Both the position numbers and the translations under genes were made by a program. From a virus: a DNA stretch of 56,396 nt. Positions 5,288-12,281 of the stretch are shown here, piece after piece. The stretch lies in IMG/VR virus record IMGVR_UViG_3300045988_043442, positions 1 through 56,396 of that record; one strand, given 5' to 3'. How positions within the stretch are numbered: the stretch's first letter is position 1; every line of letters starts with the position of its first letter. The notes under the pieces are model-generated. The model worked only from the letters and a program-made list of their open reading frames with translations. It had not been told where the DNA came from and did no database searches.

Positions 5288-5314
5288 AAAAAAGGCTACA
5301 TTTGTAGCCTTTTT
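5288..5314 (-). terminator. Bidirectional intrinsic terminator ending the ribozyme-containing operon
   Basis: GGCTAC / GTAGCC stem flanked by an A-run and a T-run. Confidence 0.75.
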
Positions 5315-5988: not shown

Positions 5989-6029
5989 AGCAAGCCGGGG
6001 AATCGAACCCCGGAAGCGCCAACCTTGCT
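5989..6029 (-). ncRNA. tRNA-like acceptor/T-arm minihelix
   Basis: Minus strand: AGCAAG-GUUGGCGCUU-CCGGGG-UUCGAUU-CCCCGG-CUUGCU. Canonical T-loop. 6+6 bp coaxial helices. Starts 1 nt after the upstream TAA. Confidence 0.55.
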
Positions 6030-6030
6030 A

Positions 6031-6483
6031 TTATATTGCTTCTTTTTCTTTGCTAATTTCTGCCGCAATTATTCCCTGCTCAATAAAATATCGTAATGCA
6101 CTATCGCCGAAGCGTTGTATATAATATTCTGCAAGCTCCGAAGTGCTGAAAGCTTCTAAGGCTGTGCCAACATCGCTATAAATTCCGCTGCATGTTTTAG
6201 TCCTATTTGCTAGTGCTTTATCAATAGGGCTTTTCGGCTCTTCCTCTTTAACTCCTACAAGCCTATCAGCTCGCATTGTTCTAGTGTGTTCGTTTCCGCT
6301 TTCGTCGGAAATAATAACGCATTTAACGCTTTTTCCGCTCTTGGTAGGCTCTACGCTTTTGACTGTGGAAGTGTAACCAAAATTCCAAACTGTAACCATT
6401 CCCGGCTTTAATTCTGCCGCCGGGATTGCTTTTTGTGGTGTGTGTATTCCTTGTAGTTTAATTGTTTTCATAATATCAACCAT
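6031..6483 (-). CDS. Hypothetical 150-aa protein (start may be Met5 at 6471)
   Basis: ORF in the operon. No family recognised. Confidence 0.65.
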   Translation of the reverse strand: MVDIMKTIKLQGIHTPQKAIPAAELKPGMVTVWNFGYTSTVKSVEPTKSGKSVKCVIISDESGNEHTRTMRADRLVGVKEEEPKSPIDKALANRTKTCSGIYSDVGTALEAFSTSELAEYYIQRFGDSALRYFIEQGIIAAEISKEKEAI

Positions 6484-6495
6484 CCTTTCATTGTG

Positions 6496-6558
6496 TGCCC
6501 TGTCTCATCGGTGCAGGTGGGGCAGTTCCTACAGACCGCCAGAAGTGGCGGTTTCGAC
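6496..6558 (-). ncRNA. Type II hammerhead ribozyme candidate with variant core (C at position 4)
   Basis: Minus strand: GUC-GAAAC-CGCCA-CUUC-UGGCG-GUC / UGUAGG-loop-CCUGCA-CCGAUGA-GAC-A-GGGCA. Loop I UGCCC pairs with GGGCA. Confidence 0.55.
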
Positions 6559-6782
6559 TATTTCACTTGTTCTAAAATCTGTATATATATAGACGGTTTC
6601 GATTCGTCAACCTCTTTATAGACGCATCCGTTATATACTTTATTTGTTGACCCTTTGCAGGACTTGCCAAAACTCTTGCAGTTGTAGCACATTGGGTTAT
6701 ACTCCAATGCTTCAATGGCTTTTTTGCGTGCCTTGCTTCTTTCTATCTGTTCATTTGTTACAACCATTATATATTTTTCCAT
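6558..6782 (-). CDS. Hypothetical Cys-containing 74-aa protein
   Basis: ATG (MEKYIMVV) lies 8 nt behind GAGG. Confidence 0.6.
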   Translation of the reverse strand: MEKYIMVVTNEQIERSKARKKAIEALEYNPMCYNCKSFGKSCKGSTNKVYNGCVYKEVDESKPSIYIQILEQVK

Positions 6783-6805
6783 GTTCAAAACCTCGCTTTC
6801 GTTTT

Positions 6806-6871
6806 ATGGTCTGCCATCATCAGAGCCGGGAGACCATCCCACGGCTGACGCTCCAGGCGGAGCGTTTCGGC
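6806..6871 (-). ncRNA. Type II hammerhead ribozyme candidate
   Basis: Minus strand: GCC-GAAAC-GCUCC-GCCU-GGAGC-GUC / stem I hairpin-CUGAUGA-U-GGC-A-GACCAU. Loop I AUGGUC pairs with GACCAU. Confidence 0.65.
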
Positions 6872-7140
6872 TATGCTATTCTAACAACTGCATTTTTGAT
6901 ATTTGAGAAGTGAAAAAATTCCTTAGTCTCAATATTTTCAAATATTGCAGATTGTGCAAAGGTTTCGAGTGGCGTAAACGCATCACCCTTGCATGTGTAC
7001 GGGCTTTTTTCTGTATTCCAGTCAATTCCAAGTTTTCCGTTTTTCTCGTACACGCAAAAAGTCTTGTCATAGTTTCTAGTTCGTATCTCCCTATTGCTTG
7101 AATCGTATAAATGTACTTTGATTGTATCGTTTGCTTTCAT
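6871..7140 (-). CDS. Hypothetical 89-aa protein
   Basis: ORF in the operon. Its TAG stop contributes to hammerhead stem II. Confidence 0.6.
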   Translation of the reverse strand: MKANDTIKVHLYDSSNREIRTRNYDKTFCVYEKNGKLGIDWNTEKSPYTCKGDAFTPLETFAQSAIFENIETKEFFHFSNIKNAVVRIA

Positions 7141-8379: not shown

Positions 8380-8538
8380 AATGCCTATTGATTAATTATA
8401 TTTATTGTGTTATTATATTGCCAATAATTAAATATATAAGATTTACACCCGATAATATTAATATTGTTATCGGGTTATTTTTATGTTATTAGTATATATT
8501 ATAATAAGCTGGATAAGCTCCAGCAGAAAGGGGAACAC

Positions 8539-10557: not shown

Positions 10558-10653
10558 TATTTAATGCCGTGTCTGACCAATGCGTATAAATGGCTACAAA
10601 GAATAGTACACTGCGGCAGTGATGAATATATGTCAGAGAATAAATCACAATTT

Positions 10654-10725
10654 TGCCCTTTCGCCAAGCGGTAAGGCACAGGAGTTTGATTCCTGTATGC
10701 GTTGGTTCGAGTCCAACAAGGGCAG
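10654..10725 (+). tRNA. tRNA-Gln (anticodon UUG)
   Basis: Hand-folded 72-nt cloverleaf. U1:A72 acceptor, anticodon loop GUUUGAU, T-loop UUCGAGU. Confidence 0.85.
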
Positions 10726-10939
10726 TTCAGCTTACTTTTTATTGACAGTCTATCTTTGCAACCAAGATGGACCTCCTTTCAATATTTACCTCTTTGGATT
10801 TGTTCAGTTAAGGGTAGTGCAAGACTATCCGAGAGGTTTCACCTCGCACAGAGGTGTGAAATTCAACTTATCAAGGATTTTTCTTAATGCCCCCGACTAT
10901 TTATTACAAAATTCTTGGTAGCCGTTACAGGCGGCATAT

Positions 10940-11023
10940 GCCGTGTGTCCGGTTGGTCGAGGAAGCAGTCTTGAAAACTGTCTGGGCGTAAAAGCCTCCG
11001 GGGTTCGATTCCCTGACACGGCG
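10940..11023 (+). tRNA. tRNA-Ser (anticodon UGA), long variable arm
   Basis: Acceptor GCCGUGU / ACACGGC, anticodon loop CUUGAAA, variable arm, T-loop UUCGAUU. The D-arm register is slightly irregular. Confidence 0.75.
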
Positions 11024-11097
11024 TTCTCACATGTAAACTGAAAAGAGAAACAAGTTGCTGGTTATCTGTATTTCTCTAAAACCACCTACATGTGAGT

Positions 11098-11238: not shown

Positions 11239-11360
11239 TTACAACAAACTAGGTTAGCTACCGAAAAGCACTTCCGCTGTGCCTGTTTGTTGTTTTTATC
11301 AATTAAGCGGAGTATGTATCACAGGCATACATAAATAATATCAAGCGGAGGTATTCAATT

Positions 11361-12281
11361 ATGGCAACAATTAGAGTGCATAAAACAAAAAATTACACAG
11401 TTATGAGTAATACTCATTTAAGAGATAAGAATTTAAGTCTGAAAGCAAAAGGACTATTGTCTGTAATGCTTTCATTGCCCGATAATTGGGATTATTCAAT
11501 AGCTGGGTTAGTTGCAATAAGTAAAGAGAATGAAACAGCTGTTAAATCGGCTTTAAATGAGTTAAGGGATAATAATTATGTTGTGGTTACTAAGGAAAAC
11601 CCGACAAAAAGCAATGGTGGAAGAATAAAGTACACCTACGAGGTTTACGAAGAACCATATAAACAGAAAATAGAAAAACAAGATACAGAAAATCTAGGGG
11701 TTGAATGTCAACAGGTAGAAAACCACGGACAATTAAATACTAATGAATTAAGTACTGATGAATTAAATATTAATAAACAAAATACTGAAAGATCAATTAC
11801 TAATAAGGACTATACATCAATTAACATTGATGGAGAGGTACATACATCGTTTTCAGAGAAACCGACGGCAAGAGCTGTCACAAGAGATGAAATGTTGCTT
11901 AAAGAAAAAGATATGGTTGATAGGTTCAATAACATCTGTGACAATGACATAGATAATTCAGCTATATGTGATTGCGTTAAGGATGGATTTAAGATGTATA
12001 TGCAGTTATATGAAATCTATTTCCATAAAGTACACCCAATACTTACAGATAAGACATTAAAGAATGTATGTTTTGTACTATCAACTATCACAGATACAGA
12101 ACACGGACATTTCGACGCTGACGCTATATACGAAACAGACGATAAGGGCATTACAGTTTTACAGAGAATGATTAACGACCATTTCATCAGAGAACATAGA
12201 GAAAGCACCAACTACTCAATAACACATTTTGCCAATGCTGAATATCTTAGCAAGCTGGCAAATGGATTTATAGAGATGTAA
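11361..12281 (+). CDS. Winged-helix DNA-binding protein (replication-initiator/DnaD-like N-terminus)
   Basis: YTVMSNTHLRDKNLSLKAKGLLSVMLSLPDNWDYSIAGL...LNELRDNNYV pattern. Confidence 0.55.
   Translation: MATIRVHKTKNYTVMSNTHLRDKNLSLKAKGLLSVMLSLPDNWDYSIAGLVAISKENETAVKSALNELRDNNYVVVTKENPTKSNGGRIKYTYEVYEEPYKQKIEKQDTENLGVECQQVENHGQLNTNELSTDELNINKQNTERSITNKDYTSINIDGEVHTSFSEKPTARAVTRDEMLLKEKDMVDRFNNICDNDIDNSAICDCVKDGFKMYMQLYEIYFHKVHPILTDKTLKNVCFVLSTITDTEHGHFDADAIYETDDKGITVLQRMINDHFIREHRESTNYSITHFANAEYLSKLANGFIEM

Follow-up and report, generated by a model that had tools for sequence, protein, structure and literature searches.

The window analysed here, the whole 56,396-nucleotide stretch of IMG/VR virus record IMGVR_UViG_3300045988_043442, contains at 6496..6560 of its minus strand a complete type II hammerhead with a C instead of the U at core position 4 (C4). 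We consider it probable that this element is a functional member of an unannotated class of pseudoknot-stabilised type II hammerheads, here class B, in which C4 is commoner than U4 and whose members occur in temperate phages and prophages of gut Lachnospiraceae. Most likely the element still self-cleaves after C6534, which would separate two cistrons of a leftward, probably early, operon.

Read 5' to 3' on the minus strand (6560..6496; all coordinates in this paragraph are on that strand), the element is UAG UC GAAA CCGCCA CUUC UGGCGG UC UGUAGG AACUGCCCCA CCUGCA CCGAUGA GAC A GGGCA, from the upstream TAG stop through the end of the pseudoknot. The TAG (6558..6560) terminates a 74-aa ORF, and its last base, G6558, doubles as nucleotide 11.3 of stem II, a borrowing already pointed out in a sequence-only reading of this DNA: the 5' strand GUC (11.3-11.1, 6556..6558) has as its partner the 3' strand GAC (10.1-10.3, 6502..6504), with 6558..6556 facing 6504..6502. 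The core bases G12, A13 and A14, read from the sequence, occupy 6553..6555, followed by the stem III hairpin (6535..6552; ACCGCCA, loop CUUC, UGGCGGU), in which 6552..6546 pairs with 6541..6535 and which includes A15.1 and U16.1. By hammerhead numbering (GUC, then U), C17 lies at 6534 and cleavage is predicted 3' of this base, between 6534 and 6533. In the stem I hairpin (6512..6533; UGUAGG, the loop given above, CCUGCA), 6533..6528 pairs with 6517..6512, and the third pair (6531/6514) is a U.G wobble. Within loop I, UGCCC (6520..6524) forms the 5' strand of a 5-bp pseudoknot with GGGCA (6496..6500), A6501 serving as linker. The C3-A9 box (6505..6511) reads CCGAUGA, with C4 at 6510.

In the element, stems I, II and III therefore meet in a three-way junction that has both its 5' and its 3' end in stem II, as defines type II, and the pseudoknot UGCCC/GGGCA provides the tertiary contact by linking loop I to the 3' tail. 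The type II core bases C3 (6511), G5 (6509), A6 (6508), G8 (6506) and A9 (6505) are present, as are G12-A14 (6555..6553), A15.1-U16.1 (6552/6535) and H17 (C, 6534), and the one departure is at U4, the uridine-turn base, where 6510 is C. Every base that had been assigned from the letters alone was found at its minus-strand position. An alternative pairing of ACCG (2.1-5) with a stem III strand was judged coincidental because it depends on the stem III background, and plain MFE folding (z = -0.84) was uninformative because the pseudoknot competes with stem I.

This anatomy is complete and far beyond chance. The loose descriptor CGAAAC..GTC..CNGANGA has two matches in the 56 kb window, the element and a canonical neighbour at 6805..6872 (minus strand), where shuffled sequences give a chance expectation of 0.01. 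Using our own covariance model, the element scores 97.7 bits, and no third hammerhead copy was found in the window with the filters off. The Rfam model Hammerhead_II (RF02276) aligns over the full length of the element with 28.5 bits (E = 5.6e-4 for a 301-nt sequence); since its gathering score is 37 bits, the element is missed by standard annotation, and whole-window Rfam scans did not report it. The C4 base costs about 6 bits in this model, as seen from a class-B U4 twin in related locus L068 (34.7 bits), and the helix sequences differ so much from RF02276 that even this twin stays below the gathering threshold.

The element sits between the 74-aa cistron (6558..6782, minus strand; 56 homologous loci) and a 150-aa ORF (6031..6483, minus strand; 67 homologous loci), neither with a Pfam or PHROG match; searches of ten neighbouring proteins against Pfam and PHROGs gave nothing informative. 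The Shine-Dalgarno/start module of the downstream gene begins about 7 nt past the pseudoknot. A flank, AAUGAAAGGAUGGUUGAUWUUAUG, is kept 3' of class-B elements ahead of many unrelated downstream genes, and we therefore place the Shine-Dalgarno sequence GAAAGGA at 6489..6483 and the likely start at ATG 6471..6469 (conserved region 6469..6489, minus strand), so that the product is probably 146 aa long. Nearly all of the listed class-B relatives come directly after a stop-like triplet (TAG followed by TC, or TAA followed by GTC). In the window, two hammerheads about 310 nt apart flank the 74-aa ORF, the arrangement of clustered prophage operons. A promoter-like TTGGCA-18-TATAAT (8395..8424, minus strand; 11/12 consensus matches) and a terminator-like hairpin (5289..5314, minus strand; 11-bp stem, then a T run), each a consensus match only, could bound a leftward operon of small genes.

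The window as a whole looks like a temperate phage or prophage of about 56 kb with two tRNA genes and an int-alpA RNA; neither the region nor the element had a match in the cultured-phage database. The tRNA genes are tRNA-Gln(UUG) (10653..10726) and tRNA-Ser(UGA) (10939..11024) on the plus strand, the latter with a sub-threshold tRNA-Sec match in Rfam. The int-alpA RNA (11242..11308, plus strand, 45.3 bits) lies just upstream of a 306-aa ORF (11361..12281) that may, we presume, be an integrase. Directly after the stop of the 150-aa ORF there is a tRNA-like minihelix (5989..6030, minus strand; UAGCAAG-GUUGGCGCUU-CCGGGGUUCGAUUCCCCGG-CUUGCU) with an acceptor-like stem and a perfect T-arm; ARAGORN made no call on it, and its best Rfam match, mascRNA-menRNA, is weak (18.2 bits, E = 0.11). 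Related loci contain several families of such elements (stop codon, acceptor-like stem and T-arm), in which the first stem pair covaries between G-C and A-U. The minihelix could be an RNase P/Z processing signal in the very operon that the hammerheads would cut, or a tRNA 3'-half (attP-like).

About 365 related loci, which belong to phages of the gut and to prophages of Lachnospiraceae, were gathered by way of the two flanking proteins, a class-specific DNA pattern in species-representative genomes, and two DNA patterns that span the stem I/loop sequence only and were searched in IMG/VR. Type II hammerheads in these loci fall into three sequence classes, and two or three hammerheads per locus, in successive intergenic regions, are usual. 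Class A is represented in the window by the canonical neighbour (RF02276, 63.3 bits, E = 7.9e-11), which lies one cistron upstream of the element and class B by the element itself. The two have the same architecture and operon, and both are placed between a stop codon and a ribosome binding site; class A differs in an extra U after A9, in A1.1-U2.1 where the element has U1.1-A2.1, and in never carrying C4. Class C has stems II and III in common with class B, and a stem I and pseudoknot of its own (GUCGAAACCGCC..GGCGGUCUGGUGUAGGGUUGCAACCUUGCCACUGAUGAGACAAGC; about 70 distinct sequences, e.g. L007:2614-2681 and L034:2925-2992); its pseudoknot prediction is weak. Some class-A hammerheads in related loci end after CUGACG, have neither a 3' strand of stem II nor a pseudoknot, and run directly into an intrinsic-terminator-like hairpin, AAAAACCGGAUUUAUUCCGGUUUUUU. 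According to genome matches, hosts of class B are Lachnospiraceae (Roseburia, Jutongia, Clostridium sp. CAG:510, UMGS894 and UBA5899), and out of seven class-B copies in species-representative genomes, six are labelled Lachnospiraceae and one Selenomonadaceae. Remoter relatives with U4 and covarying helices were found in MAGs labelled Bacteroidales, Proteobacteria and Obscuribacterales.

The fold covaries across these relatives. In an alignment of 150 model hits from all classes (134 distinct sequences), which was fitted to the model's structure and somewhat favours that structure, standard pairs fill 97.5% of cells (shuffling gives 76.9%, sliding the partners no more than 48.7%), compensatory changes are seen at 11 of the 16 pairs, and the covariation score is 0.507 versus 0.170. 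Stem III shows compensatory swaps (CCGCC/GGCGG, GGUGG/CCACC and GCUCC/GGAGC), the middle pair of stem II changes from U-A to C-G between classes, and four of the six stem I pairs are compensated between classes; pair 1.3-2.3, the wobble in the element, is C-G, U.G or U-A in relatives. The pseudoknot is no part of the covariance model; its two strands nevertheless vary jointly between classes (UGCCC/GGGCA, UGGUCU/AGACCA, UAGCCU/AGGCUA, CGCCC/GGGCG and CUGGC/GCCGG), and the mean best helix is 5.1 bp compared with 3.9 bp for foreign tails. Class B taken by itself shows real, if modest, covariation, in stem III (CCGCC/GGCGG exchanged for GGUGG/CCACC) and at stem I pair 1.3-2.3; its stem II pairs in 100% of cells. 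The sequence-only reading had proposed a type II hammerhead whose stems and pseudoknot should covary, and both proposals are borne out by the complete anatomy and by the 134 distinct sequences. It had also taken the helix differences between the two copies in the window as support for the fold; the fold does covary in the population alignment, but the two copies belong to paralogous classes, and their differences are not covariation in the strict sense.

For the base at position 4, we used class-B sequences sampled from IMG/VR by their stem I/loop only, so that the core was unconstrained. Among 104 distinct class-B sequences, a sample biased for either allele towards undecayed copies because an intact stem I/loop was required for retrieval, 63 carry C4, 40 carry U4 and one carries A4; the A4 copy, in locus L141, is multiply decayed. 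Sequences exclusive to loci from the stem I/loop search divide 51 C to 22 U, and C4 is found in five of the seven class-B copies of species-representative genomes. C4 was seen in none of about 70 distinct class-A sequences and in 7 of about 70 class-C sequences (A vs B, p = 6e-20; C vs B, p = 7e-12). Position 4 in class B is thus a pyrimidine rather than strictly U, with C the commoner allele, and homologues, as the earlier reading had asked of them, carry both bases. Near-identical U4 and C4 sequences exist on several backgrounds (the U4 twin in L068 is one example), among them pairs such as L100/L095 and L123/L061 whose sole difference is position 4; therefore the C4 copies are alleles of consensus hammerheads. 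Sequence comparison leaves their homology to consensus hammerheads certain, and their catalytic equivalence to U4 copies is not certain. Our literature searches found no description of natural CCGAUGA hammerheads in phages.

We observe purifying selection on the C4 copies. At the other 11 core positions, variant cells number 5 of 693 (0.7%) in the C4 subset and 3 of 440 in the U4 subset (p = 1), while the 3' tail columns of the C4 subset vary in 94 of 378 cells (25%; vs core, p = 9e-40); such counts of distinct sequences overstate independence because the sequences are related and heavily recombined. At G12-A14 the 63 distinct C4 sequences show one variant, at G12, and helix integrity is equal in C4 and U4 copies. 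C4 copies are found behind many different upstream genes. In some of these contexts 8 distinct C4 sequences stand against at most one with U4, which shows that lineages with C4 last and go on diversifying. Secondary lesions are slightly commoner in C4 copies (L001, L162, L202 and L210) than in U4 copies, and the difference is not significant. Because the rest of the core is kept as strictly as in U4 copies while the tail varies by about 25%, C4 is a maintained, class-specific natural allele with no sign of decay. The earlier reading had allowed for a slow, an inactive or a tolerated variant; the comparative data favour the tolerated natural variant and make a decayed copy unlikely.

Inspection of per-column counts found no column that clearly tracks the C4 allele, hence no obvious compensating substitution; a stem I C/U site and a pseudoknot A/G site have similar frequencies in the C4 and U4 subsets. 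Nearest-neighbour folding gives the nested hammerhead fold a probability about 3 times higher with C4 than with U4, because U4 permits a CUG/CAG mini-hairpin. We give this advantage little weight, as the same hairpin could form in class A, where C4 does not occur.

Cleavage of the element, its rate and its consequences for the mRNAs are what we infer from this evidence, and the proposed course is as follows. The ribozyme would be transcribed in a polycistronic leftward RNA, directly after the stop of the 74-aa gene, fold during transcription and self-cleave 3' of C6534. The 3' end of the upstream mRNA would then lie 24 nt beyond the stop codon, within the GC-rich stem III hairpin, and bear a 2',3'-cyclic phosphate, and the downstream mRNA would have its 5'-OH end precisely where the stem I hairpin begins. 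In Firmicute mRNA decay, a flush 5' hairpin guards against RNase J and a 3' hairpin against 3' exonucleases; thus the cistrons would be independently stable mRNAs, each capped by a hairpin, as with a natural ribozyme insulator. Synthetic insulators such as RiboJ, whose ribozyme and hairpin give downstream mRNAs a uniform 5' end, offer a functional analogy only. C4 would probably retain a U-turn-like conformation at some energetic cost, for which the strong tertiary scaffold, a 6-bp stem I and a GC-rich pseudoknot beside the 3-bp stem II, may compensate. Cleavage, though perhaps somewhat slowed, would still suffice biologically. That C is tolerated at a U-turn position is known from C33 of eukaryotic initiator tRNA, a structural analogy only. 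Cutting at both hammerheads would excise a 313-nt RNA (6534..6846, minus strand) with the whole 74-aa cistron; that this RNA, with its 5'-OH and 2',3'-cP ends, is in principle a substrate for RtcB-type ligation or circularisation is pure speculation.

A possible but rather doubtful alternative to simple tolerance is that C4 works as an adaptive rheostat or as a conditional switch. In that case the C4 copies would cleave slowly or depending on conditions (C4 protonation, higher Mg2+), and the population would keep both alleles to set the fraction of polycistronic mRNA that is cut at each junction. Both alleles occur at intermediate frequency and before the same downstream gene families, tolerance of C4 is strongly class-specific (A 0/70, C 7/~70, B 63/~104), and two more soft polymorphisms that weaken pairing without breaking it, C-G/U.G in stem I and U-A/U.G in the pseudoknot, are common. 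There is also almost no phylogenetic signal with respect to the adjacent gene: on the upstream-gene tree the allele takes 9 Fitch changes for 13 C4 tips, compared with 11 when labels are permuted. However, the allele is untied to any particular downstream or upstream gene, no link between allele and downstream gene was found (the same gene families follow both alleles), and a near-neutral site shuffled by recombination predicts the same pattern. Downstream genes are reshuffled to an equal extent (26 different downstream gene starts behind one upstream gene, among 39 sequences), so recombination is inseparable from recurrent mutation and we do not claim the latter; the allele scatter may come from two old alleles that have been recombined, not from repeated mutation. 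Slightly less likely again is the more specific version, in which position 4 of the class-B scaffold, and more rarely of class C, acts as a natural rheostat with an altered pH/Mg2+ dependence and an unrecognised structural compensation, such as a contact of the N4 amino group or of a protonated N3 with the A6-N7 phosphate, supported by the stack of stem II and pseudoknot. If the rheostat were true, both alleles would be maintained to tune the cutting of polycistronic early mRNAs.

Because the downstream gene is reshuffled to the same degree, the ribozyme cassette is a recombination junction. Stop codon, ribozyme and Shine-Dalgarno/start segment (6469..6495, minus strand, in the window, and in related loci) behave as one portable intergenic cassette, found between a single upstream gene and at least 26 different downstream genes, and this suggests that the cassette acts as a junction for gene-module recombination. 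One could then suppose that C4 copies are catalytically dead and that the cassette is kept for its protective hairpins, for the ribosome-binding-site context or as a recombination junction, and U4 mutations do cripple model hammerheads (PMC9901934, PMC3088659). We regard this as unlikely: it does not explain why G5, A6, G8, A9, G12-A14, A15.1-U16.1 and C17 are invariant in the 63 distinct C4 sequences when variation in their loops and tails is 20-50%, compensatory base-pair changes would not arise if DNA identity were all that mattered, and position 4 accepts pyrimidines only, apart from the single A4 in the multiply decayed L141.

It is very improbable that the copy in the window is a recently inactivated, decaying pseudo-ribozyme, a reading to which its sub-threshold Rfam score and the U.G wobble in stem I might point. 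All helices and all other core bases are intact, the U4 twin in L068 is likewise sub-threshold, the same C4 haplotype family is widespread, and truly decayed copies such as L141 and L202 differ in having several lesions each. The class-B copy L141:5674-5740 has several lesions including A4 and G12A, L202:14464-14530 is damaged by A15.1G, A9C and a pseudoknot change, and L001:2925-2992 carries G12A alone. A sequencing or assembly artefact at 6510 has nothing specific in its favour and next to no likelihood, given that many independent IMG/VR datasets and GenBank MAGs from different projects together supply more than 60 distinct C4 sequences.

U4 is treated as an invariant base of the hammerhead core, and its substitutions are strongly deleterious in mutational studies. 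Class B is a whole natural ribozyme class with a C4 majority, and purifying selection holds the remainder of its core tightly. Should the C4 copies cleave, the demands on the core would depend on the scaffold, with the sequence pairs that differ solely at position 4 as a natural experiment, and searches tuned to CUGAUGA, the Rfam threshold included, would systematically miss such gut-phage ribozymes. The loci also give a sharper view of phage operons, with RNA processing signals set flush against stop codons and ribosome binding sites.

Among known systems, the closest is Hammerhead_II (RF02276; Perreault et al. 2011, PMC3088659), which like the element is open at stem II, has the same pseudoknot topology, shares the core apart from position 4 (U there, C in the element), and occurs between phage or prophage genes, often several times per operon. 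Clustered prophage hammerheads of Agrobacterium tumefaciens, Azorhizobium caulinodans and Clostridium scindens cleave in vitro, one set in E. coli as well (PMC3088659), and type II hammerheads beside phage genes of Desulfovibrio vulgaris cleave in vivo (PMC8782182). As in the window, several ribozymes flank single genes in phage-derived operons in these cases; the role proposed for them, still unproven, is the cutting of long transcripts into gene-length mRNAs, and they differ from the element in having the consensus U4.

With regard to position 4 itself, U4 contacts the A6-N7 phosphate (PMC3088659), and a deep mutational scan of a type III hammerhead found low activity for every single mutant of the CUGA turn (PMC9901934). 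A candidate from Aedes with cCgauga and further deviations was inactive. Crystallography shows a sharp bend between U4 and G5 and the same C3-A9 turn in pseudoknotted and extended hammerheads (PMC11300833). In that structure, which has U4, the pseudoknot replaces helix II, whereas the element keeps a 3-bp helix II and its pseudoknot joins loop I to the 3' tail. The nearest precedent for the base change is a natural viroid variant with U4C, the identical substitution at the identical core position, which, according to the passage of PMC3088659 that cites Ambros and Flores 1998, has considerably lower activity in vitro and enough in vivo for infectivity. As described in that passage, the viroid U4C is a sporadic variant in an RNA replicon, whereas here a whole DNA-encoded class has C4 in the majority and is under purifying selection.
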